A stretch of DNA of 64,000 nucleotides from assembly GCA_021161255.1 (NCBI GenBank), contig JAGHAZ010000027.1:2076-66075 (forward strand), given 5' to 3'. The position numbers and the translations under genes were made by a program. This stretch comes from Candidatus Bathyarchaeota archaeon (GTDB taxonomy: Archaea > Thermoproteota > CALKCG01 > B24). This document shows, piece after piece, positions 2,326-18,618 of the stretch. Numbering within the stretch: the first letter of the stretch is position 1; each line of letters opens with the position of its first letter. The notes beneath the pieces were generated by a model that saw only the letters and a list, made by a program, of their open reading frames with translations, did not search any database and was not told the DNA's origin.

Positions 2326-4287
2326 ATGGCCGAGCAGGAGATTCGCCCTGGACTGACTTGGAGGTCAATACTAGCCCTAATATTCTCCCTATTCCTAGTG
2401 CAGCCGGTGATGATATACTACTACCTCATAAGCGCCCAGTGGTTCCCACTTCAGGCTTGGATAGTGATCCTGCTATGGTCGGAGATCGCGCACTTCCTAG
2501 GCTCTCCGTTAAGTAAGCAAGAGCTCTTCATCCTACTGAGCTTCCAGTGGATGGCCTCCTACTATGCGCAGCTCTTCAGCATGGGCGGCCCCTATGACTT
2601 GGTTAAGAATGCATATATGGCCTACAGCCCTGAAGCACAGGCCCTAGGGATCTCACAGTACGTTCCGTCTTGGTGGGTACCGCCTCAAAGCGAACTCATA
2701 AGATTGACCATGGAACGCACGTTCCTCTACTTCGACCCGGTGTGGCTTATCCCGTTGGGGATAGCGGTTTTAGCGTTGATATTTAACATGGTTGCCGATA
2801 TATCCATGGGCTATTTCACTTACTCGCTCTACGTGAAAGTGGAGAAGCTCCAGTTCCCCGCCGCTAGGGCAGCCGCCGAGACAGTCTTAACGCTGGCTGA
2901 GAGAGATCCACTGCATATGAGGATACTGATGCTATCTATTCTCTTCGGTGCGCTCTACGACTTATTCGTGAGCTTCCTACCATACCTACTCGGACCTTAC
3001 CTAGCCAGTGGAGGAGCCGCGATCTACACGGTTCTTCTACCGATCGCTCAAACCTTCGACATGACGCCTGTGATAGCGCACTTCCTACCAGGGTTCGGCT
3101 TCGCCTTCACCTTGAACTTGATGACGTCTCCGGCAGGCTACATATCAGGGTTCATACTCCCCATCGACATATGTCTAGCCCAGTTTTTAGGGGCCTTCAG
3201 CTACTACTGTATAGGAACGCATCTGATAACGAGGTTTAACCTCTGGCCGGCTGAAAGTCCATACGATATTTCGTGGCCGCTGGCTATACTTGTCCAAAGG
3301 TCTCAGCTATACTTCTACACGAGCCTCACCATAGGTATGGCCTTGGCAGCCACGTTCCTTCCGATGCTGATAAGACCTAAATCGGTCATCAGGGCCTTCA
3401 GTTCGCTGGCTAAAGCGAAAGGTGCAGAGGGAGAGGGTCCTCCGCTATACTTGCTACTCGCGGCTTTCCTAGGGGCGTGCACTGGAGGCATGCTACTGGT
3501 ATACTTCCTAACAGGGTTCCCGCTTTGGATTCTAGCAATATTCATGATCGGCGGTTCGTTCTTCGCGTCGTTTATGGGTGCAAGCGCCGCAGGTGTTACC
3601 ACTACCGGGTTTAACGTGCCCATGCTTCCGCAGCTGATGATATATCTGACCGGTTGGCAGGATAAGCGCATATGGTTTGCTCCGACAAACATATACGCCG
3701 GAGGCCCAAGTATAGCCCAGGCGTTTATGCAGGCGGACATACTGAAGGCTAGAAAGTCCGAATATATCAAGACCTATATACTGATATTCTTCGTAGGCGT
3801 TCTCGTTACCATACTCTTCGTGTCCTATCTATGGACTCTATCGCCTATACCGTCTGGAGCGTATCCTGCTACGATGGTATACTGGCCGGTCGACGCCATG
3901 AACTGGGCTAGATGGCAGGTCTGGATGTGGTCCGGCTACCTGTTCAGGAAAGACCTTCTGATCGGAGGATTCGCTATAGGCTCAGTGATATACCTGATAA
4001 CGGATCTTATATTCCATAAACCATACTTCCTAGTGGCTTTCATCAGCGGAGCGTATGGTAGCTGGTTTGGCTACACCATGCAGCTTCCATACACGCTGGC
4101 CCAGCTGATAGGGTCGATAATCGGTAACGTGGTCGTAGCCAGAGTTCTAAGTAGGAGGACAAAGATACCTTACGGCGTATTCGCCTACAGGTTCTACATG
4201 GGTACCACGATCGGATGGGGTCTGATGGAGAGCATAAGAGCGTTACTGGTGCTAGTCAGCCGAGCGATGTGGCTACTGCCATACTAG
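2326..4287 (+). CDS. Polytopic membrane protein, divergent member of a triplicated unknown family (E-K-L-Q-F-P..ER motif)
   Basis: 653-aa ORF that is hydrophobic throughout. It shares the E(R/K)xxFP...E...ER segment and the C-terminal R(V)..S(R)...YGV(F/P) pattern with 4357..6444 and 10990..12960. A T7 run follows at 4311-4317. Confidence 0.6.
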   Translation: MAEQEIRPGLTWRSILALIFSLFLVQPVMIYYYLISAQWFPLQAWIVILLWSEIAHFLGSPLSKQELFILLSFQWMASYYAQLFSMGGPYDLVKNAYMAYSPEAQALGISQYVPSWWVPPQSELIRLTMERTFLYFDPVWLIPLGIAVLALIFNMVADISMGYFTYSLYVKVEKLQFPAARAAAETVLTLAERDPLHMRILMLSILFGALYDLFVSFLPYLLGPYLASGGAAIYTVLLPIAQTFDMTPVIAHFLPGFGFAFTLNLMTSPAGYISGFILPIDICLAQFLGAFSYYCIGTHLITRFNLWPAESPYDISWPLAILVQRSQLYFYTSLTIGMALAATFLPMLIRPKSVIRAFSSLAKAKGAEGEGPPLYLLLAAFLGACTGGMLLVYFLTGFPLWILAIFMIGGSFFASFMGASAAGVTTTGFNVPMLPQLMIYLTGWQDKRIWFAPTNIYAGGPSIAQAFMQADILKARKSEYIKTYILIFFVGVLVTILFVSYLWTLSPIPSGAYPATMVYWPVDAMNWARWQVWMWSGYLFRKDLLIGGFAIGSVIYLITDLIFHKPYFLVAFISGAYGSWFGYTMQLPYTLAQLIGSIIGNVVVARVLSRRTKIPYGVFAYRFYMGTTIGWGLMESIRALLVLVSRAMWLLPY

Positions 4288-4356: not shown

Positions 4357-6444
4357 ATGGCAAGACTTTTAAATTCTCTGAAGAGATCAACTAGTGGTTT
4401 GAAAATGAGCGAGGAGGTTAAGGAGTTTAGGATAAGACCATCGCTTCTCGTTCCCTTGATAATCCTAACGGCTGTACTATCGTTCATAGGGACAGTTGAG
4501 ATCGCTTTGAACGGCTCTGTCGGCGGCGCCTTCATGTGCCGCTACGCGTGGGGTACGGTCTCCAAGACGATGGGTATTCCGATAATGTCGCTACTAGTAA
4601 TCCTGTTAGCTTTCCCGTTTAAATATCTGAGAGGCCGGTTGTCGCCTTCTACGCTTGTCTCCCTTTACGTCGTCGGCGCCGCTGTGGCGATGTATGGTAT
4701 CGGACACTACGAGACGTTCGCGTGCTGGCCGGTAGGATTCGCCAGAACGCTCCTGTATACTGAGCCGGAGTTCCTACCGGTCGCGGAGAGCTGGTGGTGG
4801 ATGCCACCATACGACGTAGTACAGCTTATAAACGCAGGCGGAGCTGCGACTGACTGGGGAGCATGGTCAGGAGCCATACTATTCTGGTCGCTATACCTAC
4901 TGGTCTTCTACCTATTCGGATCGAGCGTGATGCTGCTCTTCAGACGGAGATGGTTGGACATAGAGAGGGTGCCGTTCCCATACGTCATAGCGACCCACGA
5001 ACTCATAAGACGGGTCTCCGGAGAACGCGGATTAGAGAAGACGACGAAGTGGTTTATCATAGGCTTTGTTATAGCGTTGCTCTTCGAAATACAGGTCATG
5101 TGCACATATATATGGCCGTGGTGGCCAGACCTGCTTGCTTGGAGAGGCACGGCTGTAGACGAAACAAGCCCACAGGGATGTGTATGCGTCTATGCTAACG
5201 ACCCTATTGAAAGCGCCCTTGTATGGTGGCCAGGCTATACAAAGAATGTCCTACCGTTCCTAGTGTACTATCTAGCGCCTTTAGATGTATTACTTTCAGC
5301 ATGGGTATTCTTCTTAATAGTGGTAATACTCGCTCAGATAGCTTACATGATGGGCTACTACACAGGAGTCTTTGAGATGGGAAGCGCCTGCAGAATACTT
5401 GGATGGGCTGGCTCTGATATATCGCCTCTATTCGGTCCGCCGTACTACTGGATGTGGGTGACGATGATAGGTGGCACACTTGCTGTGACGGTCATGATGA
5501 TGTTCCACGCCAGAAGCTACCTCGCCGAGACTATAAGGCTTGCTATGCGTGGAGGCAGGTCTCCAGAGGAGGCTAACGAACCCTTCACCTACAGACAAAT
5601 ATACATATTCATCGTGATCTCCGCGATAATACTACTTGCGTTCTGCTTCTCAGCGGGATTAAGCATAGGAACGGCCTTGGCAGTATTGATAGTAGGTGCG
5701 TTCATAAACACCGTGGCAGCAGCATACGTCCTAGGTTTAAGCGGATGCGGCTATATACACGAAAGAGCCTTGTGGCCCAGCTGGCCTCTAAGATTCATAT
5801 GGCCCACCGCTCCCCAGAACTACAGTGCAGACTGGATCATGAGCCACGTCTTCATGCACACAGGGCTCAACCACGTAACTCACGGAGTACAAACCGGGGC
5901 ATACCTCACAATACAGAACCTTAAGATGGGTAGCCTAGCTAAGATAAATCTCCGAGACATATTCATACTGACCACTATAGCCAGCATCGTAGCGATATTC
6001 GTCGGAAACGCTACAAGGGTTTGGATAATAAATCTTCTAGGAGTTGCGCGTGTCCCGATATGGGGTAGCTGCTCGGTCACCCAATGGTGTGATAACGACT
6101 TTGAAAGATATGCGCAGGCTCCACCTGCAGAGTTCCAGTTTACGGCAGGTGCTGCAGGTTTCGTGATAACGATGATACTATTCCTTCTAAGGGCTAGGTT
6201 CATATGGTGGCCTCTACACCCAGTAGGCTTCATACTGGCGACCGGTGTGGCGCCTAACTGGATGAGGGAATGGAATGCTATGCTTGGTGCTTGGATAGCC
6301 AAGTTCCTGACCCTACGCGTAGGCGGTAGCAGAGCCTACGAAGAATACGGCGTACCCTTCGTAAGCGGAGGAATCGCAGGTTATGCGCTATCGAACCTAA
6401 TAGCCTACCTAGTAGGCACGGTGAGGTTCTTCATACCGTTCTAA
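4357..6444 (+). CDS. Polytopic membrane protein, unknown family (WLDIERVPFPY motif; C-terminus ...LTLRVGGSRAYEEYGVPFVSG...RFFIPF)
   Basis: 695-aa ORF and a clear paralog of 10990..12960: WMPPYDVVQLINAGGAATDWGAW vs MCPPYDVVIRLSTGGPIDWGAW; WLDIERVPFPY vs WIDVERVPFPH; identical C-terminal logic. Its 3' flank is shared with 10990..12960. Confidence 0.65.
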   Translation: MARLLNSLKRSTSGLKMSEEVKEFRIRPSLLVPLIILTAVLSFIGTVEIALNGSVGGAFMCRYAWGTVSKTMGIPIMSLLVILLAFPFKYLRGRLSPSTLVSLYVVGAAVAMYGIGHYETFACWPVGFARTLLYTEPEFLPVAESWWWMPPYDVVQLINAGGAATDWGAWSGAILFWSLYLLVFYLFGSSVMLLFRRRWLDIERVPFPYVIATHELIRRVSGERGLEKTTKWFIIGFVIALLFEIQVMCTYIWPWWPDLLAWRGTAVDETSPQGCVCVYANDPIESALVWWPGYTKNVLPFLVYYLAPLDVLLSAWVFFLIVVILAQIAYMMGYYTGVFEMGSACRILGWAGSDISPLFGPPYYWMWVTMIGGTLAVTVMMMFHARSYLAETIRLAMRGGRSPEEANEPFTYRQIYIFIVISAIILLAFCFSAGLSIGTALAVLIVGAFINTVAAAYVLGLSGCGYIHERALWPSWPLRFIWPTAPQNYSADWIMSHVFMHTGLNHVTHGVQTGAYLTIQNLKMGSLAKINLRDIFILTTIASIVAIFVGNATRVWIINLLGVARVPIWGSCSVTQWCDNDFERYAQAPPAEFQFTAGAAGFVITMILFLLRARFIWWPLHPVGFILATGVAPNWMREWNAMLGAWIAKFLTLRVGGSRAYEEYGVPFVSGGIAGYALSNLIAYLVGTVRFFIPF

Positions 6445-6451
6445 GGTAAGT

Positions 6452-6480
6452 CCCAATTTTTTATAGGGAATTCCTTTATT
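6452..6480 (+). terminator. T-rich terminator-like element, duplicated after 12960 (conserved cccaaTTTTTT ... ggaatWcctttat)
   Basis: 6452-6480 (tcccaattttttatagggaattcctttatt) and 12969-13000 (tcccaattttttcccatcgtggaatacctttat) share both blocks. T6 runs are typical archaeal termination signals. Confidence 0.4.
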
Positions 6481-6530
6481 TTTCTGACCGGAGTGTTTAA
6501 GTTCATCCTCCTCAAGATTTATCATGTCCG

Positions 6531-7124
6531 ATGATCAAGTGGATAGTCTCCCTAGGTCTCTCGTTACTCGCTCTCGGGTCTCTTCTATTCACGGTTTCTC
6601 AAACCCTGGAAACTCACTCCCAGTCGATAACGCCTGAGGTATTATTGTATCAGGATAGGTTTGAGATGAAGCGTGAAGAAGTCAGGGTCTACAACTTCAC
6701 GTTTCCCCAGAATGTGACGGTCGTCACCATCGTAGGGTCCAACATGTGCGTAGGCCTTAGAATATACAACGAGACGTTTCAAGAGTTTATCGACGAGATG
6801 GGTGGATTAAGCATGGTGAATTATACCGACATCGCTGAGCTTCTGGGGAATATGCCTAAACCAATCTCATGGTCCCACAGTGAATATTACAGACATTTGA
6901 TACCAAACAATAAAACCATGACCTACTACTTTATACTCTACAACTATCCTGCATGTTATCCTAAAAGCGTCCGCTTAGAAATAGGATACACCACCGGTGA
7001 GATAGAGGTGCCTAGGGAAGAGCCCATAACGTTTAGAAACCAGCTACTATCGGCGGGTTTAGCCTCGATAGCCCTAGGATGCCTAATAGCGCTATACGGC
7101 TTCGTCAGAGAACCTAAAATATAG
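6531..7124 (+). CDS. Small secreted/anchored protein: N-terminal signal/TM, five N-x-S/T sequons, C-terminal TM anchor
   Basis: 197-aa ORF with an N-terminal hydrophobic segment (IVSLGLSLLALGSLLF). Sequons are NFT, NVT, NET, NYT and NKT. The C-terminal hydrophobic stretch is LLSAGLASIALGCLIALYGF. Confidence 0.5.
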   Translation: MIKWIVSLGLSLLALGSLLFTVSQTLETHSQSITPEVLLYQDRFEMKREEVRVYNFTFPQNVTVVTIVGSNMCVGLRIYNETFQEFIDEMGGLSMVNYTDIAELLGNMPKPISWSHSEYYRHLIPNNKTMTYYFILYNYPACYPKSVRLEIGYTTGEIEVPREEPITFRNQLLSAGLASIALGCLIALYGFVREPKI

Positions 7125-7138
7125 AGGCTGAGAGGAGA

Positions 7139-8377
7139 TTACTCTATAAGCTCCTCCACGTTCTTCTTTATCTTCTCTATAGTCGCCACTACGAGGTCTG
7201 CCGCTTCTTTTCCTCCTAAGAGGATCTGATGCGGTAGGGTTATCTCTCTTTTACAATACTCTTCAGCGCCTGGAAGATGTAGACTTTCATAATCCGGTAT
7301 CTTCCAATCTTCCGGGAATATCCCCTTAAGATTTTCTTTTTTGAAAGCCGGTTGCTTATACAAGGGCATACCGTAGCCGGCACCCGCTGGTATCCCCTCA
7401 GCGTTCAAAGCCTCTAAGAACTTTTCTTTAGGAAGACCGTGAAACTCCTCGGGATCGTATCTTATCACAAAGAAGTAGTAGCCTCTCTTAGTAATCCTAT
7501 CGTCCCTCTTAAGCGGCTCAACCCCACCTATCCTCCTCAGCTTCGAAGCCAAGTACTCGCCAGTCTCATGTTTAAGTTCCACATGCTCCTTGAGCCTTCT
7601 CATCTGCGATATCAACAGCCCAGCCTGAATCTCTGAAAGCCGGTAGTTAGAGCTTAAGATGAAATGCATGTATCCAGGTTTGCCGAGAACCCTACCTATG
7701 TTATGGATGAGCCTAGCTCGTTCGGCGAGTTTATCATCATTAGTCAAGACGATTCCACCTTCACCAGCCGTCAAGGTTTTACTCTCCTGTAGGCTGAACC
7801 CTCCCATATCCCCGATCGCCCCGACCTTACGACCTCTCCACTCAGAGCCGTGGGCGTGAGCTGCGTCTTCTATTAGAAAAAGACCGTTCCTCCTCACCAC
7901 CGGAAGGACTTCGTCGAAATTTATAGGATAGCCTGCGTAATGGACGCCTATAACAGCCTTGGTCCTCTCGCTTATGTTCTCCTCTATCGACTCGGGGCTT
8001 ATGGTCGCGGTCTCAGGGTCTACGTCTGCGAAGACCGGTATAGCCCCCACCTCGCTCACGGCTGAGGCCGTGGCTATAAACGTCACAGCTGGCACTATAA
8101 CTTCGTCTCCGAAGTTGACTCCGATAGTCTTAAGGGCGAGTTCAAGGGCCACCGTCCCGTTAGCTACGGCTATCCCGTATTTGGCTTGATGATACTCTGC
8201 AAACATCCTCTCGAAAACCTCAGCCTTAGAACCGGGGTAAAGCCTACACCACCGTCTACTTCTAACGACCTCTACTACAGCTCTCTCATCTTCCTCATCG
8301 TAGATAGGCCAAGGCGGAACAAGCTCCCTAAGCCTCTCCGCCTCTCTAGGGCCACCTTTTAAAGCTAACCTAGCCAT
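7139..8377 (-). CDS. DegT/DnrJ/EryC1/StrS-family PLP-dependent sugar aminotransferase
   Basis: ...GTVALELALKTIGVNFGDEVIVPAVTFIATASAV...GAIPVFADVD...AVIGVHYAGYP...FLIEDAAHAHG...DMGGFSLQESKTLTAGEGG... matches the AAT_I / DegT fold and catalytic region. Confidence 0.8.
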   Translation of the reverse strand: MARLALKGGPREAERLRELVPPWPIYDEEDERAVVEVVRSRRWCRLYPGSKAEVFERMFAEYHQAKYGIAVANGTVALELALKTIGVNFGDEVIVPAVTFIATASAVSEVGAIPVFADVDPETATISPESIEENISERTKAVIGVHYAGYPINFDEVLPVVRRNGLFLIEDAAHAHGSEWRGRKVGAIGDMGGFSLQESKTLTAGEGGIVLTNDDKLAERARLIHNIGRVLGKPGYMHFILSSNYRLSEIQAGLLISQMRRLKEHVELKHETGEYLASKLRRIGGVEPLKRDDRITKRGYYFFVIRYDPEEFHGLPKEKFLEALNAEGIPAGAGYGMPLYKQPAFKKENLKGIFPEDWKIPDYESLHLPGAEEYCKREITLPHQILLGGKEAADLVVATIEKIKKNVEELIE

Positions 8378-8411
8378 CGAATCAAAATCGAGTCGGCATC
8401 GGCTTTAAGAT

Positions 8412-9654
8412 TTATTCCCTTTCTATCAACCGTTTAATCGCCATAGTTATGATCACGTTCATCGCTAAGACCGCTATTGAGGCGAGAAACGGGATCCTGG
8501 GGTCTATCTGGTAAGCGTATCCGGCTAACGTGGGGGTTAACCAGTTAGCTAATGCCGAGAACGTGGTAGATAAGGAGAGCACTTTCGCCCTGGCCTTCTC
8601 GTCCACTATGTCTATCCTATTAGTTAAAAACGTTCTAACAGACGGATATGCGAGGGTATAGAAGCCGCTAAGCACTCCCGATAAGGCTGCTAAGCTTAAA
8701 TATCCTTTAGGCGTCGTCACGAGCACGGTGAGTGATAAGGCTGATAGAAGATATGCCATGGTCAAAGATTTAAGAAGCCCAACCTCACCCCGTATCATAG
8801 GAGAAAAGATCGTAAGCAGGAGGATCGACGTGACTGAAGAGGCTGCAGGTACCAAGGATGCGAGACTTTCGTCTAAAGCTAGTCCTCTAGAATCGGTGAG
8901 GTATAGTGCATTGTAGGTGCCTGAGACTGTGAAGTAGAAGTTGCCTAGTATGTTGCATAGGAATATCAGGAGTATGGCTCTTCTCCTGATAACTATCTGG
9001 AGCGCCTTACGATAGCCTTTAAATGTCGCTTCTCTCCTTCAGCAAAACCTTACCTATTTCTGTCTCCCTCAGAAGGGTTTGTCTTAAAATGAACATGGTC
9101 GTTAAAGTTGTTAATGCAAGCATACACATGGCTCTGTAACCTGCTACGATACCGTATGTAGATACCATGAGTCCAGCTAGCGGTGTCAGTAGGTTTCCGG
9201 AGACGTAGATCAGGTTGATATAGCCGTATATGCTGGCTCTATACTCTGGAGAAGTGTCCTCGACAAGCATACATTCCCAGACCGGAAATATGACCGTTAC
9301 AAGACCTTCAAACACGATGGCTAACATCATCTGCCAAAACTCTGTAGCCAGCATCCACAGAGCTAGTGAAGTGATCCAACCCACCACGTCGAAGGCCATG
9401 AAAACCCTCTTTCTCCCAAACCTATCGGCGAGATACCCTCCTAACAGGGGGAGAAACGTCTGTAATATCGAGTATAGGGTTATAGTGAAGCCTATCTCGA
9501 CCTCTGACACACCTAGGCTTTTCATGAATATGGGCCTGTAGAAGAATATCCAGCTCATGGGGATGCTCCAAAGCGGCTCGGTAGCTATTAAAACCTTAGC
9601 GTTTCTACCCCACTCTTTAAATGGCGTCTTTATCGAGACCTTTGCTTTACCCAT
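8412..9654 (-). pseudogene. MFS-family transporter interrupted by a single frameshift near 9020-9030 (T3A3 run); the two halves are ORFs 9019..9654 and 8412..8855
   Basis: The N-terminal 6-TM half ends ...LLKERSDI*. The next frame is open from ~9032 and reads ...KGYRKALQIVIRRRAILLIFLCNILGNFYF..., continuous into the 147-aa ORF. That is the central loop and TM7-12 of an MFS protein. Confidence 0.55.
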
Positions 9655-9719
9655 GGAATTCCCCTATCTAAAGCCGGTTAACATTCTTGATTGAGAGAAA
9701 AAGAATAGAGGGAGAATGC

Positions 9720-10868
9720 CTAATAGGGTTTAAATCTGGTCTCAACTTCCATGATCCTGTTTGTCCTAGAAGACTCTATGGATTTTATCATGATCTCGCT
9801 TACGTGAGCCCCCCAGTCTATGTTCGGGATCGGCTCCTCATCCCTGACGATACACTCTAGGAAGTGCTTGGTCGAAGCTGCGTAGTAGTTCCACCACCGT
9901 CCTCCAACGCTGTTCCAGTCGACTTTAACCCAGCCTCTACCGGAGGCTATGTCTTTGTAGGCTAAGGCATAGGCTCCGCCTATGAACAGCCCGCCGTTAG
10001 AGCCGTAAACCTCTATGTCTGGGAGTTCACCGATGTCATCTCTAACCCCATCTGGGGTCACGAAGTTTGCTACTACCACTCCTAAGCCTCCTGTCTCCAT
10101 CTCCATCAGGGTCAACGTGTTGTCTTCAGCCTCCACCTTTATCTTCAAGGTTCTAGGCGCCTTATCGAGCGCGTCCCAGACGATTCTGTAGGGGGACTTA
10201 GATAAGTAGTCCGTAAACCACTCCGGTGGTACGATGTTTATCTCCGGTATTGAAATCTTCGCCAATCCTGCGACTCTTCTTACAGGTCCTAGCAGAAATG
10301 TTAGGGTTGAGATCTCGTACACGCCAAGGTCGAACAGAGGACCCCCCGCCTCCTTAGAGAAGAACGTCTTCGCACCCCAGACAGGTGGTCCTCGACCGAG
10401 GCCTGCTCTAAACCAGTATACCTCGCCTAGGCTCTTTAAAACTTCTTTAGCTTTAAGGTATACCGGGAACATCTGCACCCCTGGTTCAACGAGTGCTTTA
10501 ACACCAGCTTTCTTAACGGCGTCTACGGCTTTTTTAAGATCATCCATGTTCGTGGCTAAAGGCTTCTGAACGAGTATATGCTTACCCGCCTCGGCGGCTT
10601 CTATGACCTGTTTAGCGTGATCGCCCATACCGGTCAATATGAAAACGGCTTCGATATCGGATTTTCTAAGCATCTCTTCAAGGCTTCTGTAGTATTCCTT
10701 GGCACCCCACAGTTTCGCAGACCTTTCAGCCCGTTTCTCTATCAAGTCGCATACCGCTACAAGTTCACCATACTCTCTAATGGCTGGAAGGTAAGCGTTG
10801 TTAGCTACCACGCCGCAGCCCACCACACCGCATTTAACTTTCCGAAAAACCATAACGGTAGCCTCCAC
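9720..10868 (-). CDS. Gfo/Idh/MocA-family NAD(P)-dependent sugar oxidoreductase
   Basis: N-terminal Rossmann motif VKCGVVGCGVVANNAYLPAI...LVAVCD, plus ...EAVFILTGMGDHAKQVIEAAEAGKHILVQKPLA. The likely true start is the internal MVFRK... (~10853). Confidence 0.8.
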   Translation of the reverse strand: MEATVMVFRKVKCGVVGCGVVANNAYLPAIREYGELVAVCDLIEKRAERSAKLWGAKEYYRSLEEMLRKSDIEAVFILTGMGDHAKQVIEAAEAGKHILVQKPLATNMDDLKKAVDAVKKAGVKALVEPGVQMFPVYLKAKEVLKSLGEVYWFRAGLGRGPPVWGAKTFFSKEAGGPLFDLGVYEISTLTFLLGPVRRVAGLAKISIPEINIVPPEWFTDYLSKSPYRIVWDALDKAPRTLKIKVEAEDNTLTLMEMETGGLGVVVANFVTPDGVRDDIGELPDIEVYGSNGGLFIGGAYALAYKDIASGRGWVKVDWNSVGGRWWNYYAASTKHFLECIVRDEEPIPNIDWGAHVSEIMIKSIESSRTNRIMEVETRFKPY

Positions 10869-10989
10869 TATGAATACGCATATCAGAACCAGCGTCTTAT
10901 AAGATTATCCAAAAAATCGAGATCCGGTGGACATTTCTTCCCGGAAAGAATTATAAAGTCTCCGGGTAGAAATTACATGGGGGTTTTCT

Positions 10990-12960
10990 ATGGGAGAGGA
11001 AAGAGTCGAACGTTTTCCGATAGCGTTAGTGATTCTAGTGCCTTTGGTTCTAGGGTTTTTAGGACCGATCTGGCAGTTACTTATCAGTAGCTTCCCATAT
11101 TGGATCGTGAACTCTCTGGGCGAGTCTGTCTGTCACATAGGGCTGACAACTGCGCCTTTTCTAGTACTTCTGCTGACAGCGCCGATCTACAGGATAAAGT
11201 CTTTAAGAGAACGTTTCGGCGTTAAGACGTTGGCGTACCTATACATAAGTTCTCTGGTGACTTCATATTTCATCAACTATCCATGGGCTTTAGGACAGCG
11301 CTACCTTTACTCGGTTAGGATCACGGAGAGGGAGCTTGCGGAGAGTATTGTACCTACGTTCATGTGTCCACCATATGACGTGGTGATACGTCTATCTACT
11401 GGCGGTCCGATAGACTGGGGTGCATGGGCGACTCCGATTGCATGGTTCTGGCTACACAATATAACCATGGGGATATTCATGCTGTCTGTAGCGACGTTGT
11501 TCAGAAGACTCTGGATAGACGTTGAAAGGGTTCCGTTCCCGCATGCATTAGTTGCATACGAACTGGCTAAAGGCAACGTTTCAGAGAGGGGTTGGAGTAA
11601 ATTCTTCATCATAGGAGTCATAATCGGTCTGGCTTTCCAGATCCCGGTAACACTCACAGGGATATTCCCATGGTTCCCGGATATTTATGGAGTTCAATAT
11701 CGAACTTGTCCTATGCTGACTAGATGGTTTGGCGGCGACGAGCCTATGGGTGCGATACCTGGTATGATGAGCATGACCTACAACCCGACAGCTGTAGCTG
11801 TAGCCTATCTAGCTCCATTGTCCGTACAGTTTAGCACATGGTTCTTCGCCGTGATGTATATGGTCGCCGTACAGATAGCATGGTACATGGGCTTCTACAC
11901 AGGCATAACAGACATCGGGACCTGTGGCCGATACTGGTGCTCTCCATCACCTACTACTGAGCCTCCGTTGAAATTCGGAGCTATCGCTGTAGGTGCTCTC
12001 GTAGCAATGGGTCTAATGCATCTAATACTTAACCGACATTATCTTTCCGAGGTCTTCAGAGCTGCTTCTAAAGGCTCAAGCGAGTTTAAAGATGAGGCTA
12101 TGAGCTACAGGACATGCTTGCTAATCATGGCTGTATCGGCTGTGGCGGCGATAGCTTTCTGGATGGGGTCTGGCCTATCTTTCATAGATGCCTTGTTCCT
12201 ACCTATAACGGCGTTCTGCATATGGTATCCGATGAATCGTCTCTTCGGACTCGCTGGAGCTTACTGGAGAAGTTCTGATAAAGGTCTAGTGTTCTTCAGG
12301 TTGCTCCATCCGATGTGTCACACGCCTGTAACGACTCAGGAGTACTTAATCTATAGAACCGCTGTCCAATCATGTTCGGATACACCGACCTATCCTTGGG
12401 GTGGCGCGGCGGTTTCGGCGTTCACGTCATATAAGTTTGCTAGTCTTGCTGGTCTAAGTGCCAGGAACACGTTTAAGACGCTGCTTGCAGCTCTGCTGAT
12501 AGCCCCGTTAGCGTCGCATATATCGTTCATATGGCTTCTCCATACGGTCGGTGGTGAGCATATAGGCATATGGTCGAGCTGGTTCTTAGGTATAGGTGAA
12601 CGACTTTCACGGATACCTGACTGGTGGTCTGCCACTCCGGCTCGTGAGCCTTGGGTCGAATATGCAATCATAGGTGCTCTGCTGATGATTGTTTTAAGCT
12701 GGCTTCACGCGAGGTTTGTATGGTTCCCGCTTGAACCCATAGGCTATATACTAGGTACAACCGCTGCCTCGGCTCTATTCGGACTATGGTCGGCCTTCCT
12801 CGTGGCTTGGATCTTAAAGATGATAACTCTCAGAGTCGGTGGGGCTAAGCTCTACGAGGGCTATGGGGTCCCTGTGGCATCAGGAGCAACCGTAGGCTGT
12901 ATGATAGGGATGATCTTCGGCGGTGTACTATGGATCATAAGGTTCTTCGTACCGTTTTAA
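10990..12960 (+). CDS. Polytopic membrane protein, unknown family (WIDVERVPFPH motif; ...ITLRVGGAKLYEGYGVPVASG...RFFVPF); paralog of 4357..6444
   Basis: 656-aa ORF. Shared motifs and a conserved 3' UTR (cccaatttttt ... ggaat(a/t)cctttat) are listed under 4357..6444. Confidence 0.65.
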   Translation: MGEERVERFPIALVILVPLVLGFLGPIWQLLISSFPYWIVNSLGESVCHIGLTTAPFLVLLLTAPIYRIKSLRERFGVKTLAYLYISSLVTSYFINYPWALGQRYLYSVRITERELAESIVPTFMCPPYDVVIRLSTGGPIDWGAWATPIAWFWLHNITMGIFMLSVATLFRRLWIDVERVPFPHALVAYELAKGNVSERGWSKFFIIGVIIGLAFQIPVTLTGIFPWFPDIYGVQYRTCPMLTRWFGGDEPMGAIPGMMSMTYNPTAVAVAYLAPLSVQFSTWFFAVMYMVAVQIAWYMGFYTGITDIGTCGRYWCSPSPTTEPPLKFGAIAVGALVAMGLMHLILNRHYLSEVFRAASKGSSEFKDEAMSYRTCLLIMAVSAVAAIAFWMGSGLSFIDALFLPITAFCIWYPMNRLFGLAGAYWRSSDKGLVFFRLLHPMCHTPVTTQEYLIYRTAVQSCSDTPTYPWGGAAVSAFTSYKFASLAGLSARNTFKTLLAALLIAPLASHISFIWLLHTVGGEHIGIWSSWFLGIGERLSRIPDWWSATPAREPWVEYAIIGALLMIVLSWLHARFVWFPLEPIGYILGTTAASALFGLWSAFLVAWILKMITLRVGGAKLYEGYGVPVASGATVGCMIGMIFGGVLWIIRFFVPF

Positions 12961-13038
12961 ACGACATTCCCAATTTTTTCCCATCGTGGAATACCTTTAT
13001 AAGCATCTAAAAAGTTCCTCTACAATTCGGGATTATTT

Positions 13039-13806
13039 TTGAGGCTCAAGACCGTCGTCTTTGTACTCCTGATAATATCGTTTTTCTTAGTCGAGGTTTT
13101 CAGCTTCTCTTCGGCCAGTTTCTCTCAGCCTGATTGGATCCGGTCGGGTGTCTACGTCGAGTATGGTTGCAACGTGACTGTTTATAAAGGGGCGCCTTAT
13201 GCTCCGAGTTCTGGAACTTTTAGATGGACCATAGTGAACGTGACTGACGATAAGATTTATGTGCGTTATGAGATGAAAATCGAGGATCTCTTGCTCGAGA
13301 AAACCTTTGTGATAGACGCAGAGACCAATAGGATACTATCGATAGACGGGGAATCTGTGGGAAACATTACAAACTATCTCTGGATCAGCTACATTCCGAG
13401 GGTCGGAGACTTTATCCAGCTTGAAAATCTCACCGCTGAAGTCGTGGATCTGAGGAAGTTTTCTTCAAGACTATTCACGAACCGGACATGCTGGGTTACT
13501 AATGCGACTTTCAGCATAGCTGATGTTAACGCAGGAGATTTGAAAAACGCTACCATGGAGGGTTTCATAGAGAGAATATATGATTCTGAGACCGGTATAC
13601 TCGTGTATTCGCGTTTTCTCATAGAGTTTAAAGAGCCTGATGGTAAGGTTTCTCAAAGCTACTTTTCTAGAATGATAATCTCTTCGACGAATGTGACAGA
13701 ACTTGGTAGTCGACGGCCAGCTTCTATCCCCATGGCTGTTGCGGCGGCCTCTATAGTAGCGGTCCTTGTATTGGCTAGAAGAATCCTCCGTATAAGACTA
13801 GCTTGA
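13039..13806 (+). CDS. Secreted, heavily N-glycosylation-sequon-bearing protein with C-terminal TM anchor
   Basis: Signal-like N-terminus (VVFVLLIISFFLVEVFSFSSA). It has 8 N-x-S/T sequons (NVT, NVT, NIT, NLT, NRT, NAT, NAT, NVT). The C-terminal anchor is PMAVAAASIVAVLVLARRILRIR. The architecture and position mirror 6531..7124. Confidence 0.5.
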   Translation: MRLKTVVFVLLIISFFLVEVFSFSSASFSQPDWIRSGVYVEYGCNVTVYKGAPYAPSSGTFRWTIVNVTDDKIYVRYEMKIEDLLLEKTFVIDAETNRILSIDGESVGNITNYLWISYIPRVGDFIQLENLTAEVVDLRKFSSRLFTNRTCWVTNATFSIADVNAGDLKNATMEGFIERIYDSETGILVYSRFLIEFKEPDGKVSQSYFSRMIISSTNVTELGSRRPASIPMAVAAASIVAVLVLARRILRIRLA

Positions 13807-14665
13807 TTATTGCATCTACTGCTGCTGGCGCCAAGCCTGCTACTAGGGCTTTCTTCTTCTGCATACGACAGAGTATGTAAAGTGCTACGGAGCATATCAG
13901 GTAGCTCCAGATCGAGAACGAGTATCCGATGTTGAAGAGAACTTGCGGTATGGTGCGTTTCTCCCACTCAGCTTTGTATGTATTTGTCATGGCGTCGGCT
14001 ATTTCGATGTTTTTCATATTCATCAACACGAGTGTTATGGAGGATGAAAGCATGACGACGGCTGTATCGACGGCTACGACGACCGTTAGCGGAGGGACTA
14101 CAAAGAGTATCATCGCCGCTTCGATGATTTTGCCTATTATGTAGACGCTTATGGAGTAGATAGTTGCCATGAGGATCGTCGTGAATCGTCTTTCTGCTTT
14201 GAAAAGCCATGCCATTAAATAGTATATTGCTGTGTTTCTGAGGATGAAATAGCCGTAGTTTACTAGAGACATGACTGCTAAACGTATTGCGGTTGTGTAG
14301 TCCATCAGTGATGGGTTGAGGGGCTCTAGAAGGTCGGGCTTTTTGAGAATATAGAGGTCTGTCTTGAAGAGTATGAAAAGCTGTCTATTGATCAGGTCCA
14401 TCGCTATTAGTATTACGAGTATCGCTATAGGGCCTCCTATATCTGGGTTTTCGGCTATTTCTCTAAACGCTTTAAACGGGTTGGCTATAACAAGTCCTAT
14501 TCTTCTGGAGAACTCTCTAAGCCATAAAGCTGCGTATTTGAGAGCTGATTTTAGCCAGCCTAGGATTGCCGAGACCACGGCTTGTAGTGTTTGTAGTTTT
14601 CCACGTCGTCTTTTTCGTCTCCTGGGTTTTCTTCTTCGTCTTGTTTTGGGCTTGGACTTTTCCAA
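13775..14665 (-). CDS. Polytopic membrane protein with polybasic N-terminus (KPKTRRRRKPRRRKRRRGK); possibly Yip1-like, unassigned
   Basis: 296-aa ORF with 5-6 predicted TM segments. It converges on, and overlaps by ~30 nt, the end of 13039..13806. Confidence 0.4.
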   Translation of the reverse strand: MEKSKPKTRRRRKPRRRKRRRGKLQTLQAVVSAILGWLKSALKYAALWLREFSRRIGLVIANPFKAFREIAENPDIGGPIAILVILIAMDLINRQLFILFKTDLYILKKPDLLEPLNPSLMDYTTAIRLAVMSLVNYGYFILRNTAIYYLMAWLFKAERRFTTILMATIYSISVYIIGKIIEAAMILFVVPPLTVVVAVDTAVVMLSSSITLVLMNMKNIEIADAMTNTYKAEWEKRTIPQVLFNIGYSFSIWSYLICSVALYILCRMQKKKALVAGLAPAAVDAIIKLVLYGGFF

Positions 14666-14977
14666 TTTTTATGCATCTCCAGCTTCGTTAAGCTAGACTT
14701 CTAGACGCTTTAGATAGAGGTGACATTTAATATATGTTTTCCACACCTCCTCCTGCCGATGTCTATAGAAAGGGGTTAGTATTGGGGGTTAAATTGTGGA
14801 AACCGGTGTGGTTGGGTGTTTATTATCTGAACGATGGATGGAGGATCTGCGTCTTCTTCTAAAGAAACTTGGGTGGTTGAGCTTGTGAGAAACGGATTGT
14901 TGGGAAGTTGGGTTTTGTAGAAAACTTAAAAAGCGATTGTGTAAGGTTAGTAGTATAGAGCTTGGAGGGGGTCGGAA

Positions 14978-17900
14978 TTGAACGCTAACTCCTTTAAAGT
15001 TATTTTAACTGTTTTAGCAGTTCTGTTATTGATTCCTGTTTCTACTTTAACTGTTGCTCAAGAATCCATCAAAGATGTGAAATGTACATTGATACTGTAT
15101 ATTATGAATTATGTGACGAGTTCTCCAGAACCTAGGATTAATGTGTCGGTTGTCTTAACTAACGTGACTTTAAGCGGTGTTACCGATGAATTTGGTTGCG
15201 TAAAGTCTTCTTTCAACGCGTCTAAAGATGCGATTAATAATCTAGTGTTAAATGAGTTATCGTTGTATGGGAACTTCACTGTGATAAGGATTCAGGATTA
15301 TTTGATGGAGGATCTCCAATATGATTCGTCTTACTCTGAATCTACTGTAACATACACTGGCTTGGCTATAAGGCCGAGAGTTGTGGAGAGTAGGAATGAG
15401 GTTCTTCTGTATTATTATGTGTACGTGTTGAAAGGTAGGGTTGTGAACGTGAGCGATTTGGACGTTTCTACCATGCAGATCCTTTCAAACGGTGAATTAC
15501 GTATTAGGCGAAGAAAGCTCATTTTAGACGCTAGACCGGCTGTTCCTATAGATAGGTCTGTTAGCATGTATGAGAGCTTGTATCTATTCCCCTTGAATTA
15601 CACGGTAGATGTGAAGGTAAAGGTTTATCGTTACAGGTACTTGATTAGAGAGTATTCTGTTAAAGCACTTGTAACTGGTAATAGAACCTATGTCAACATT
15701 ATGGGTCCGATTCTAGATATTAAGATTAACGAGACGTTAAAGCCTTTTGAGGAGAAGATCGCTACTCTTAAGTTTTTAGGTTTGCCTATGATCGATGAAG
15801 AAAGGCTCCTTATAAGAATTAATAATCAGAAAGACAGTATTCTGAGGTTGATCGAAAATAGGAGCTATGACCCTGCATTTGCCCAATTAAGATTCTTAGC
15901 TAAGAAGGTCGCTGAATTAGAGAGTAATCTATCTAACCTGGATGCCTCTTTAGCGTGGTCTTCTATATTGGTTATGGCGTTCATCTATGCTTTTTCATCA
16001 CTTTTACCTACTTTGATGACGGATGATGCCAAGAGGAAGCTTATTCTAAAATTTGCTATATATTTCTCTTTGTTCTTAATTTTCCTATACAGTCATAACG
16101 AGTTTAAGATCGCATTGTCGATTATCTCATCGAATATTCTACTGACCAATATCAAATATCTTGACGATTTCACGGTATTGCTTATGGGTGTGACCGTTGG
16201 AAGTTTAGGAGTTTTGATACCGACCTTGATATCGCTGTATTCTCCTCCGGTAGTAAGCTTAAGTCTAGATTTAAGCATAAGGGACCTTAAACGTCATTTT
16301 TCAAGGTCTCTTCTTACGATTCTCGCGTTCTCCCTTATAATAGCGTCGACGTTGGCTGTTTTTAAGATGTCCTATAGCCATATGCTCTCTGAAACGGAGA
16401 CGCAAGCTCATTTCAAACGCGACGTCGTGTGTCTACAATCCACGACCAACAATATAATCGTTAAGGAAAATCTAATATTCCTGAAGTCTATGCACTGGAT
16501 TAACTCATCTTATCTCTTTAAATCGTTATATGGTGATATTTCATTGGATAGTATCTCAGGTTTCACAGCCGTAAGAATAATTTCGCAGGACTACGGTATG
16601 CTTGACCAAAGGTTCGAGATCTTAGGAGTCGACCCAGAGTTTCTCGATGAGTACTTCAACTTCTCTCTAACGATAACCAAAGGCGGATACCTCTCTGGAA
16701 GCGAGAGGGCTGTTCTCGTACCTGCTTCGTTAGAGTATTATCTAAGACCTTTGGATAGAGTTAGGATACGCTTTGTGATCGTAAGCGCGACCGGACAGCA
16801 ACTTGTAGATGTTGCTGAATACGATTTCGGTGAGTTTATAGTTAAAGGGTTCTTCGACCCCGACTCTGTAGACAAAATAACCCTTCCTGATGGGTCTCCG
16901 TTAATAGATACTCCGTATAAGACGATTATAGTCCCCGGGGATCTTCTGCCAGATTCGATAGATGCGCGGCACTTGACGATAACGATTCCTAGGCTTAGGA
17001 ATGTCGTGTCCTTCCAAGGACCAACATACATAAACATACTCAAAGTCCGATATGCGTTCCTACTACCCGACCCCCGTAGCGGAGTCGACGTTTACGAGAA
17101 AGCTAGGGAGCTTATGGACCTGACGGGCTTCCGGGCGTTCGGCTTCTCAAACGGAGTCTGTAAAACCTATGAGGAGCTGTATGTCCTAAACATCGTAGGT
17201 TTTTCATCGATCGTGCCTCCTATCGTGATAGTGACGCTTATAATCGTACTTGTCATGAACTCCGTCATCTATGAGCGTCGTAAGGAGATATGGACCCTAG
17301 CCGTTTTAGGCGGTAACCCACGTAATATCACTAACATGTTTCTCACCGAAGCCTTGATCACAGGGATTCTATCGACGACTATAGGGTATCTATGTTATAC
17401 AGCCGTCTACCTGTCCTCAAGGGTGTTGATACCTATCATACAGAGCTTGAACCCTGAGATGGTTAAGCTTTTCACGGAGATGAAGTCTACATCAGGCTTC
17501 GACCTTTCCTCTATTCTCATAGTGTTGTTCATGGGCTTGGCTGTCCCGGTGGTCGGTAGCTATATACCCTGCATAAAGGCCCACGGTTTAACCCTACTCG
17601 GTAGACCTCCCAAGAGGAACATAGGGGAAGACGTACGAACGAGAGGAGAGCTAGCTGAGTATCATCTTCCGATCAGGGCCACGCCGTTCGACGGAGAGAT
17701 GCTCTACAATTATCTGAAAGACAACTTCCTTACGAAAACTTTCCAGGTTAAGAAGCTCTCTGGAAATGCTTATCAGGATGGGACCTTCGACTTCAAGTTT
17801 ACGCTACAGTTTAGGAACGTGCTTACTGAGTGTAGTTTAAAGGGTATCAGGCGGGGAGATACGATATATCCTGTTTTAACGTTCCCTGCGAAGTTTATCG

Positions 17901-18577
17901 ACGCTATGGACCTACACAAGTTCATATATGACCTCGAGAAGGTTTCCCTCGGATACCCATCGTGGAGGGAGAAAAACATGCGGCTTGAGATAACTAGGGT
18001 TAAACCTGTTACTAGGGTTAGAACAGTGGACGACGTTTTACGCGATGTTAGAGTGGTTCGTGAACAGCTCCGCGTCGTCGACAGCAAGCTCAAAACTCTA
18101 GAAAAACTCAAAGCTACGACACCGTCGGAATTGTTGACCGAATACGAGAAGAAATACCTCGCTCAGGCTGAAAGGCTTAACCGTACTATACGTCGTCTCG
18201 GTTTGGAACTCGAGCCGTTCTATGAGGAACTTAATAAGGAGTCTCAGAAGTTAAGCACCGAAATAGACCGGCTGAATATAGCCTATAAGCTTGGAGAGAT
18301 ATCCGAAGAAGAATACAGGTCTTCTGTAGAGCCTCTGAAGAATAGGCTTAGCGAGGTTCAGAAGAAGCTTAACGATATAAAGTTCGTGCTGACTCAGCTT
18401 AAGATGCCGAGGGCAAAGCTTACGAGGATAAGGTTGCCGGCACGGAGGATCGCACGGAGAAAGAGGGTCGAGGAGACCCCAGGCCTTATGTACTGTCCAT
18501 ACTGTGGAAGCACGAACCTAATAAAAACTCCAAGCGGCTCGATAATATGCGGGAGATGCCGTAGAAGACTACGTTAA
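14978..18577 (+). CDS. Giant (1199 aa) surface/membrane protein: signal peptide, ~320-aa extracellular domain, TM cluster, MacB-like periplasmic-type domain, FtsX permease domain, cytoplasmic coiled-coil, C-terminal C4 zinc ribbon
   Basis: TTG start. FtsX motif ...IVLVMNSVIYERRKEIWTLAVLGGNPRNITNMFLTEALITGILSTTIGY.... Heptad-rich segment ...LRVVDSKLKTLEKLKATTPSELLTEYEKKYLAQAERLNRTIRRLGLELEPFYEELNKESQKLSTEIDRLNIAYKLGEISEEEYRSSVEPLKNRLSEVQKKLNDIKFVLTQLK. The protein ends with CPYCGSTNLIKTPSGSIICGRCRRRL. Confidence 0.65.
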   Translation: MNANSFKVILTVLAVLLLIPVSTLTVAQESIKDVKCTLILYIMNYVTSSPEPRINVSVVLTNVTLSGVTDEFGCVKSSFNASKDAINNLVLNELSLYGNFTVIRIQDYLMEDLQYDSSYSESTVTYTGLAIRPRVVESRNEVLLYYYVYVLKGRVVNVSDLDVSTMQILSNGELRIRRRKLILDARPAVPIDRSVSMYESLYLFPLNYTVDVKVKVYRYRYLIREYSVKALVTGNRTYVNIMGPILDIKINETLKPFEEKIATLKFLGLPMIDEERLLIRINNQKDSILRLIENRSYDPAFAQLRFLAKKVAELESNLSNLDASLAWSSILVMAFIYAFSSLLPTLMTDDAKRKLILKFAIYFSLFLIFLYSHNEFKIALSIISSNILLTNIKYLDDFTVLLMGVTVGSLGVLIPTLISLYSPPVVSLSLDLSIRDLKRHFSRSLLTILAFSLIIASTLAVFKMSYSHMLSETETQAHFKRDVVCLQSTTNNIIVKENLIFLKSMHWINSSYLFKSLYGDISLDSISGFTAVRIISQDYGMLDQRFEILGVDPEFLDEYFNFSLTITKGGYLSGSERAVLVPASLEYYLRPLDRVRIRFVIVSATGQQLVDVAEYDFGEFIVKGFFDPDSVDKITLPDGSPLIDTPYKTIIVPGDLLPDSIDARHLTITIPRLRNVVSFQGPTYINILKVRYAFLLPDPRSGVDVYEKARELMDLTGFRAFGFSNGVCKTYEELYVLNIVGFSSIVPPIVIVTLIIVLVMNSVIYERRKEIWTLAVLGGNPRNITNMFLTEALITGILSTTIGYLCYTAVYLSSRVLIPIIQSLNPEMVKLFTEMKSTSGFDLSSILIVLFMGLAVPVVGSYIPCIKAHGLTLLGRPPKRNIGEDVRTRGELAEYHLPIRATPFDGEMLYNYLKDNFLTKTFQVKKLSGNAYQDGTFDFKFTLQFRNVLTECSLKGIRRGDTIYPVLTFPAKFIDAMDLHKFIYDLEKVSLGYPSWREKNMRLEITRVKPVTRVRTVDDVLRDVRVVREQLRVVDSKLKTLEKLKATTPSELLTEYEKKYLAQAERLNRTIRRLGLELEPFYEELNKESQKLSTEIDRLNIAYKLGEISEEEYRSSVEPLKNRLSEVQKKLNDIKFVLTQLKMPRAKLTRIRLPARRIARRKRVEETPGLMYCPYCGSTNLIKTPSGSIICGRCRRRLR

Positions 18578-18618
18578 AAAAGGAAATTAAATTTGAGAAA
18601 TTCATGAAAATGACATTT

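Follow-up and report, generated by a model that had tools for sequence, protein, structure and literature searches.

Two large membrane-protein genes of a Bathyarchaeia genome, each followed by a small gene for a putative surface glycoprotein, share two short blocks of near-identical DNA just behind their stop codons. They lie in a 64,000-nucleotide (nt) stretch from a Candidatus Bathyarchaeota archaeon (GenBank assembly GCA_021161255.1, contig JAGHAZ010000027.1, positions 2,076 to 66,075 of the forward strand), which we refer to as the window. The large genes are called D1 and D2, and the small genes 3' of them s1 and s2, respectively. A previous reading of the letters alone (the sequence-only reading) had proposed that a whole module was duplicated here, including its intergenic signal. 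Our analysis contradicts this proposal: D1 and D2 diverged long ago, s2 and D2 are not linked, s1 and s2 are dissimilar, and an s1-type gene is found only next to D1 orthologues. We consider it likely that D1 and D2 are two old OPT-like paralogs with ordinary terminator and promoter spacers and unrelated small neighbours, and that the shared flank reflects signal grammar plus chance. Each transporter gene would end with a hairpin-less U-tract about 13 nt past its stop codon, and each small gene would then have its own TATA box and an independent promoter. The order D1-s1 would represent ancient synteny. The order D2-s2 would be a secondary, recent juxtaposition, with s2 belonging to a convergent Yip1 gene and D2 plus its 3' flank being a single-gene indel of ~2 kb between a divergent GFO/IDH/MocA promoter and s2 in one lineage only (window, L006 and L007).

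The protein encoded by s2 is 100% identical to one from a Candidatus Bathyarchaeota archaeon. The loci used for comparison are labelled L001-L091 and all derive from Bathyarchaeia and neighbouring archaeal metagenome-assembled genomes (MAGs). L013-L090 are 78 loci drawn from GTDB genomes, L013 being the relative B24, and L091 is a metagenomic locus. Similarity of 3' flanks was judged against two control sets, namely all 990 pairs of 80-nt 3' flanks of the 45 window open reading frames (ORFs) and 85-88 unique DUF6785-family 3' flanks taken from the 78 loci. The ORF coordinates of the sequence-only reading were confirmed, the small ORFs following D1 and D2 after 86 and 78 nt. The main features are as follows.

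4357..6444 as called, likely 4405..6444, + strand: D1, membrane protein with DUF6785 and DUF6784 (OPT-like) by Pfam
6451..6462, + strand: block 1 of the D1 flank, C-rich leader plus T6, putative first U-tract of the D1 terminator
6467..6479, + strand: block 2 of the D1 flank, GGAATTCCTTTAT, apparently unconstrained spacer running into a second T-run (6479..6483)
6496..6501, + strand: TATA-like TTTAAG, 35 nt 5' of the s1 start codon, probable s1 promoter
6531..7124, + strand: s1, 197 amino acids (aa), N- and C-terminal hydrophobic segments, predicted beta-sandwich ectodomain, five N-x-T sequons
10951..10958, + strand: TATA-like TTATAAAG 5' of D2, within the putative divergent promoter region between the GFO/IDH/MocA gene and D2
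10990..12960, + strand: D2, membrane protein with DUF6785 and DUF6784 by Pfam
12968..12979, + strand: block 1 of the D2 flank, C-rich leader plus T6, putative D2 U-tract terminator
12988..13003, + strand: block 2 of the D2 flank, with GGAATACC resembling a B recognition element (BRE) and the TATA element TTTATAAG (12996..13003), putative s2 promoter, 43 nt 5' of the TTG start
13039..13806, + strand: s2, 255 aa, conserved TTG start, predicted all-beta ectodomain, eight N-x-T sequons

Both large proteins pass the Pfam gathering thresholds of DUF6785 and DUF6784 (25 and 26.4 bits), with the two domains in N-to-C order. The matches are E 7.9e-32 (110.9 bits) and E 3.3e-16 (59.7 bits) for D1, and E 1.5e-34 (119.8 bits) and E 1.5e-14 (54.4 bits) for D2. 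D1 also matches OPT (PF03169) at E 3.7e-6; with 26.3 bits it is just over the cut-off of 25.8, and the match runs nearly end to end (D1 residues 168-685 against profile positions 100-621 of 623). D2 gave no OPT match at E<=0.01. The description of D1 and D2 as close paralogs did not hold, as they share only 31% aa identity (BLASTP) and their coding sequences (CDS) only 45% nt identity when codon-aligned. Under permissive blastn settings a sole collinear DNA match was found, with 61.6% identity over 297 nt (6193..6479 versus 12709..13000). It spans the conserved C-terminal domain and terminates at block 2, leaving the small ORFs unaligned. D1 orthologues (679 aa, 85-96% identical) and D2 orthologues (74-91%; 74-81% for those in other contexts) are present in many Bathyarchaeia genomes. 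Judged from these comparisons, D1 and D2 are anciently diverged members of separate old orthologous groups of the DUF6785/DUF6784 family. No solved structure related to D1 or D2 was detectable by sequence, and none of the papers covered by a literature search mentions DUF6785. The true start of D1 is most likely 4405 rather than 4357, because the 679-aa orthologues start at the Met encoded there and because a TATA-like element lies at -37. This element (TTTTAAAT, ~4368-4375) is located inside the longer ORF call, 37 nt 5' of position 4405. The last 21 nt of the D1 and D2 CDS are identical at 19 of 21 positions, and the final codons, AGG TTC TTC xTA CCG TTY TAA, are near-identical in DNA even between distant paralogs of the family. 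Gene conversion of the 3' CDS was considered and rejected: in the codon alignment, identity over the last 120 codons equals that of a control genome pair.

The gene neighbourhoods of the two pairs have different histories. The order D1-s1 is kept in L001, L008-L014, L016, L017, L028 and L091, and s1 is found beside every D1 orthologue (85-96% identical) with enough sequence, with a PA14-like gene between D1 and s1 in L011 and L012. The pair ends a conserved four-gene cluster that consists of an M28/FtsX giant protein, a 653-aa membrane protein, D1 and s1. Among the 63 DUF6785 genes for which a downstream neighbour was called, D1 orthologues alone are followed by an s1-type gene. The adjacency of D2 and s2 was observed in the window, L006 and L007 only; the two genes are apart in L001, L011, L056, L050, L051 and L057. 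In L001 and L011, the gene immediately before s2 is the divergent GFO/IDH/MocA gene and a DUF6785 gene is lacking upstream, and D2 orthologues elsewhere adjoin MoaE, a DUF5107/TPR protein or an arabinofuranosidase. In contrast to its adjacency to D2, the 32-nt convergent overlap of s2 with the Yip1 gene is present in all four loci that show both genes (window, L001, L006 and L011). The spacer behind the GFO/IDH/MocA gene measures 121-124 nt and aligns end to end whether the next gene is D2 or s2; in the comparison of the window (10869..10989, 121 nt) with L001 (18066..18189), CTTATAAG is invariant. Because this spacer aligns regardless of what follows, D2 together with its 78-nt 3' flank appears to be a clean single-gene insertion or deletion of ~2.05 kb. 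The expectation that the small ORF is always linked to the membrane family was thus borne out for s1 with D1 and failed for s2, which occurs without D2 (L001, L011), just as D2 occurs without s2. The sequence-only reading had itself regarded a lack of conserved neighbours as evidence against a module, and such a lack is what we found, since s2 is not a constant neighbour of D2. Of the signs by which a duplicated module is recognized, namely homology of both genes, collinear nucleotide similarity over the whole unit in which non-coding DNA is no more alike than synonymous sites, and conservation of both pairs in related genomes, none was found.

The genes around the two pairs are the following.

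10..2313: FtsX-domain giant protein, cut at the window edge, first gene, 5' of the gene for the 653-aa protein
2326..4287, + strand: 653-aa polytopic membrane protein, no Pfam match, directly 5' of D1
7139..8377, - strand: DegT aminotransferase
8412..9654, - strand: frameshifted MFS gene
9720..10868, - strand: GFO/IDH/MocA oxidoreductase
13775..14665, - strand: Yip1-domain membrane protein (Pfam Yip1, E 7.5e-12), converging on s2

Like the coordinates, the predicted architecture of the small proteins was confirmed. Hydrophobic segments are located at the N- and the C-terminus of both (residues 1-26 and 170-193 in s1, 1-29 and 226-252 in s2), and each has a basic tail, REPKI in s1 and the Arg-rich RRILRIRLA in s2. 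AlphaFold2 models place helices at both ends of s1 and s2. We found 5 (s1) and 8 (s2) N-x-S/T sequons, as had been counted before, compared with 1.3 and 1.75 expected from composition. The resulting densities of 2.5 and 3.1 per 100 aa are the two highest among the 45 window ORFs (mean 0.38), and every one of the 13 sequons is of the N-x-T form. Two of the five sequons of s1 (N61, N127) and six of the eight of s2 are conserved among orthologues, and each protein has an invariant cysteine pair (C73/C142 in s1, C44/C151 in s2). An extracytoplasmic glycosylated domain fits these data because the sequons are conserved and the cysteine pairs invariant. Taken together, the features argue well for s1 and s2 being surface-exposed, N-glycosylated, C-terminally anchored proteins. 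In the predicted model the s1 ectodomain adopts a GOLD/PPC/collagen-binding-type beta-sandwich, and such folds frequently serve in binding; the s2 model is unreliable (mean predicted local distance difference test score, pLDDT, 49.5).

Neither protein matches any Pfam or NCBIfam family. We obtained 7 homologue clusters for s1 and 13 for s2, all named ones from Bathyarchaeia, and a full hidden Markov model (HMM) scan of 1.84 billion representatives yielded 15 relatives of s2 at E<=1e-3. By this conservation s1 and s2 are real genes, restricted to few Bathyarchaeia lineages. The previous impression that the two are not obviously similar was correct: BLASTP detected no similarity, and the more sensitive profile comparison with hhalign gave a probability of 0.3%, on which grounds remote homology of s1 and s2 was rejected too. 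The suggestion of rapid divergence was borne out for one of them. With 53% identity to its L001 counterpart s1 is the fastest-evolving member of its cluster (73-86% for D1, DegT, the FtsX protein, the 653-aa protein and GFO). With 57-63%, s2 diverges to a degree comparable to Yip1 (61%) and MFS (62-70%). A PGF-CTERM/archaeosortase signal is absent from s1 and s2, as no NCBIfam sorting-signal model matched and the corresponding segments read SAGLASIALG and IPMAVAAAS, with no PGF.

Relatives of the window encode PA14-like proteins of ~200 aa, which resemble s1 in having an N-terminal anchor, a beta-sandwich, a C-terminal transmembrane (TM) helix and a basic tail. They are located at L001 15008..15601, L011 9256..9846 and 13988..14629, and L004 12727..13967, one of them divergent from a third paralog, D3; the window itself lacks such proteins. 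Evidence for assigning s1 and s2 themselves to PF07691 or to the PA14-like group was weak for s1 and lacking for s2. There was no Pfam match, and hhalign against the PA14-like set gave a probability of 72% for s1, over the N-terminal 72 columns only, and of 0.6% for s2. As small, fast-evolving, sequon-rich anchored proteins, s1, s2 and the PA14-like relatives may belong to the Bathyarchaeial cell surface.

The near-identical blocks behind D1 and D2 are present as had been described, at 6451-6462/12968-12979 (block 1) and 6467-6479/12988-13000 (block 2), and match at 25 of 26 positions. Within the window, TCCCAATTTTTT occurs at 6451 and 12968 only and GGAATWCCTTTAT at 6467 and 12988 only. Block 1, TCCCAA followed by T6 at +13 (D1) and +14 (D2), is one instance of a family-wide motif. 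A run of at least five T is present in 67 of 88 family 3' flanks, with a median start at +14, and the 8 nt before the run contain 49% C and 4% G. Such a post-stop T-run follows only 6 of the 45 window genes. The D1 flank has two T-tracts (T6 at 6457-6462 and T5 at 6479-6483), and D2 orthologues have TCCTCATTTTTT(TTT) at the position equivalent to D2 block 1. A hairpin was not predicted in either spacer RNA (fold z-scores -0.5 and +0.3) and Rfam families were not found in the window; with z-scores near 0 and no Rfam match, we rejected the idea that the spacers hold a known RNA or a conserved RNA structure. In archaea, termination relies on U-tracts with no hairpin, a pair of tracts being more effective than a single one (PMC8716108). 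The T-runs of D1 and D2 have the length (4-5 T or more) and the closeness to the stop codon (tens of nt) expected of such a terminator, which needs no hairpin. Because U-tracts without a hairpin match archaeal terminators, block 1 would represent an ordinary hairpin-less U-tract terminator. Counted over the whole family, the C-rich leader plus T5-8 at ~+14 follows 76% of the genes versus 6 of 45 window genes, so that the 3' ends of this family are unusually well marked.

Block 2 appears to have a different role in each flank. The TATA-like elements of the window are found 35 to 43 nt before start codons, and both s1 and s2 have one at this usual distance that is conserved in orthologues. For s2 it is TTTATAAG at -43, invariant in three loci and present in L001. 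The longer ACCTTTATAAG is invariant in the D2-s2 spacer of the window, L007 and L006, and TTTTATAAG is equivalently placed 5' of s2 in L001, a locus in which s2 is not preceded by a DUF6785 gene. We therefore assign block 2 of the D2 flank, from position and conservation, as the putative BRE/TATA promoter of s2. In the D1-s1 spacer the invariant element is ATTTTTCTGACCGGAGTGTTTAAGTT, comprising the second T-run and TTTAAG at -35; the hexamer is invariant in the window, L091, L009, L013 and L010 and present in L008. Variation in this spacer is highest in the stretch with the two blocks. Block 2 reads GAGAATTCCTTCAT in L091, with two substitutions in an otherwise near-identical locus, and GGAATACCCTCTTAT in B24 (L013), the D1 flank of which has indels and substitutions within the block 1-2 stretch. 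In L010, with an s1 75% identical, the motif is missing and both blocks are absent; for D2, only a partial motif is found in the orthologues of L006 and L007. Block 2 of the D1 flank thus looks like drifting spacer, with TTTAAG at -35 as the probable s1 promoter. A generic BRE/TATA consensus, GGAAWNNNTTWATW, was also tried as an explanation of block 2 and rejected: it matches only the two blocks in the window and is therefore not a common promoter form here.

How unusual is the resemblance of the flanks? The D1/D2 pair ranks first of the 990 window pairs (score 19, next 16), and a score of at least 19 was reached by 3 of 3293 non-orthologous DUF6785-family flank pairs, corresponding to p ~0.001-0.003 for a pair chosen a priori. 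It is no stronger than two coincidental pairs from unrelated genomes in the same set. With T-runs masked, the pair still scored 12 (top ~0.2%) and tied for about rank 6. A metagenome scan for a stop codon followed by CCAATTTTT returned a single extra locus, the D1-s1 spacer of L091, and no more D2-type flanks that carry the motif. GGAATWCC is not a widespread site, its 11 matches in the window being a mild excess over 4.2 expected. Several points weigh against attributing the resemblance to grammar and chance. The pair belongs to the top ~0.1% of family-matched pairs (~0.2% T-masked), the D1 and D2 flanks are each other's best non-orthologous match among the 85-88 family flanks, and in the family set CCAATTTTT and GGAATWCC are limited to these flanks and the D1 flanks of close relatives. 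Furthermore, the D1 flank of B24 also has GACAT and GGAATACC, as does the D2 flank of the window. Chance plus shared grammar is a residual explanation, short of demonstrated. Family membership, divergence, synteny, the patterns of motif conservation and the statistics are observed here; transport by D1 and D2, the activity of the terminators and promoters, and the glycosylation and topology of s1 and s2 are inferred.

Duplication of an ancestral transporter-spacer-small glycoprotein module as a whole, after which s1 and s2 diverged beyond recognition under selection at the cell surface, would account for the like gene order, orientation and spacing of the two pairs, for the common topology and sequon richness of s1 and s2, for the statistically unusual flanks and for the faster evolution of s1 relative to its neighbours. 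We nevertheless regard it as highly improbable. The CDS are 45% identical yet the blocks match at 25/26 positions; a neutral spacer could not have persisted over such divergence, and the blocks cannot be neutral relics. The D1 flank of L010 also lacks the motif, L006 and L007 have only a degenerate form of it behind D2, block 2 drifts between near-identical D1 loci, and the idea is contradicted by the occurrence of s2 without D2 and vice versa, by the restriction of s1-type neighbours to D1 orthologues and by the hhalign result for s1 and s2. A recent origin of the likeness is less implausible, though we still think it unlikely. An ectopic patch might have been transferred from the D2 to the D1 flank by micro-conversion or template switch, starting from the near-identical 21-nt ends of the CDS, in the ancestor of the window, L009, L091 and B24, or both flanks might have gained the same lineage-specific cis-element, e.g. 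a GGAATWCC site for a regulator co-controlling s1 and s2. Such events would fit the confinement of the motif to the window clade for D1, with the D2 flank layout being older, and the B24 D1 flank, which has GACAT, CCAATTTTTT and GGAATACC like the window D2 flank. The mutual best match of the flanks, the 19/21 identity of the CDS ends and the palindromic GGAATTCC would fit as well. Yet 3' coding identity shows no excess over the control genome pair, the distal side lacks homology to resolve a conversion, and the 6-7 nt between stop codon and block 1 differ (GGTAAG in D1, ACGACAT in D2). Moreover, block 2 is not kept in L091, L007 and L006, contrary to what would be expected of a selected site, the window has just a mild excess of GGAATWCC, and an equal score is reached by chance in two unrelated pairs of family flanks drawn from different genomes. 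The flank resemblance is therefore best read as chance combined with a common signal grammar at an equal offset, and not as an inherited module.

A further possibility, doubtful but to be taken more seriously than the preceding two, concerns function instead of descent: s1, and s2 after its juxtaposition, might be ancillary or substrate-capturing glycoprotein partners of the adjacent DUF6785 transporter, recruited convergently. The D1-s1 linkage is kept down to 53% s1 identity, the predicted beta-sandwich ectodomain of s1 (GOLD/PPC/collagen-binding type) is often a binding fold, and PA14-like proteins of identical topology adjoin the third paralog D3 in relatives. What makes us hesitate is the putative two-tract terminator and independent promoter between D1 and s1, the PA14-like gene inserted between them in L011 and L012, and the linkage of s2 to Yip1 instead of D2. 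In addition, D1-like paralogs 72-75% identical (L018, L020) and ~55 other family members have no such neighbour. It is improbable that D1 forms a two-component importer with s1 (and perhaps further DUF6785 paralogs with PA14-like proteins), in which a single-pass surface glycoprotein assists an OPT-like permease and the lineage-specific flank element coordinates expression of the partners; if so, archaea would have an equivalent of the eukaryotic transporters that are assisted by glycoproteins.

Under the explanation that we favour, two old paralogs with unrelated small neighbours, the question as originally posed matters little, because no new genetic element is involved: the shared flank would be a terminator plus a promoter-like stretch. 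The arrangement is ordinary but built from uncharacterised families, and the DUF6785 expansion and the small anchored glycoproteins are noteworthy for research on Bathyarchaeia. DUF6785/DUF6784 genes reach ~9-14 copies in several single MAGs (Bathyarchaeia, 'Nitrososphaerota', Brockarchaeota). Their neighbours include URO-D (9), DegT (4), M20 (4), GH4 (3), thiolase (3) and arabinofuranosidase as well as xylose-isomerase-like genes. We infer that the proteins are substrate importers, and because there are 9-14 copies per genome, each adjoining different catabolic enzymes, they are candidates for a major substrate-uptake family. This large, wholly uncharacterised OPT-like family would provide a candidate uptake route in abundant, uncultured, carbon-cycling archaea. 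The 653-aa protein encoded at 2326..4287 is probably a remote DUF6785 relative. Aligned with DUF6785 by hhalign it gave a probability of 51% and E 1.5e-4, collinear over 413 columns, and it has WWxPP and VEKxxFP motifs in common with the family. Its gene lies directly 5' of D1 in L001, L011 and L013-L017, and a T7 run is located 24 nt 3' of its stop codon. Because of the profile alignment, the common motifs and the constant position 5' of D1, this gene may represent another member of the family, the third and a very divergent one, arranged in tandem with D1.

The interval from s1 to the MFS gene (7125..8411) is a rearrangement hotspot. In the window it contains DegT on the - strand only. In B24, which is 96-98% identical, the third DUF6785 paralog D3 is found on the + strand instead of DegT (L013 6887..8881), and in L001 (10723..15601) the interval holds a PIN toxin-antitoxin pair, DegT and D3 on the - strand and a PA14-like anchored protein. 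The MFS gene has a frameshift near 9022 that splits it into ORFs of 211 and 147 aa; L001 and L011 have an intact 412-aa gene, the split gene being a pseudogene or else the product of a faulty assembly. A weak resemblance to YknW, under the NCBIfam cut-off, was seen for the Yip1 protein, the gene of which adjoins two giant FtsX-domain proteins at 14978..18577 (with a CdvA-like coiled coil) and 18619..21792. The region 13775..21792 may encode an FtsX/Yip1-type envelope system. Just downstream of the FtsX-domain genes lies a RuBisCO large-subunit homologue (21921..23213, - strand; Pfam E 1.3e-82).

The elements described here can be compared with known systems. The T5-T7 runs soon after the stop codon, with no upstream hairpin, resemble the archaeal U-tract terminators that act with aCPSF1 (PMC8716108), but the flanks of the DUF6785 family have, in addition, a C-rich leader and a fixed offset of +13/14. 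D1 and D2 resemble Pfam DUF6785+DUF6784 proteins and, more remotely, OPT transporters (PF03169) in their domain matches, their polytopic nature and their size of ~650-700 aa. In contrast to OPT, the DUF6785 members are uncharacterised, D2 stays under the OPT threshold, and the proposed transport of a substrate is read from neighbour diversity only. Archaeal BRE/TATA promoters consist of an A/T-rich TATA-like element with a purine-rich element before it. The spacers share with them a conserved TATA-like hexamer or octamer 35-43 nt 5' of the start codons and the preceding purine-rich element, the assignment here resting on position and conservation. Finally, s1 and s2 have the signal-like N-terminal segment, the sequon-rich ectodomain and the C-terminal TM helix followed by basic residues that characterize archaeal S-layer-type type I surface glycoproteins, from which they differ in being very small, with a single domain of ~140-200 aa, and in being found in few lineages. 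The predicted beta-sandwich of the s1 ectodomain resembles that of GOLD-domain type I membrane proteins (p24/TMED) and of PPC/collagen-binding domains.

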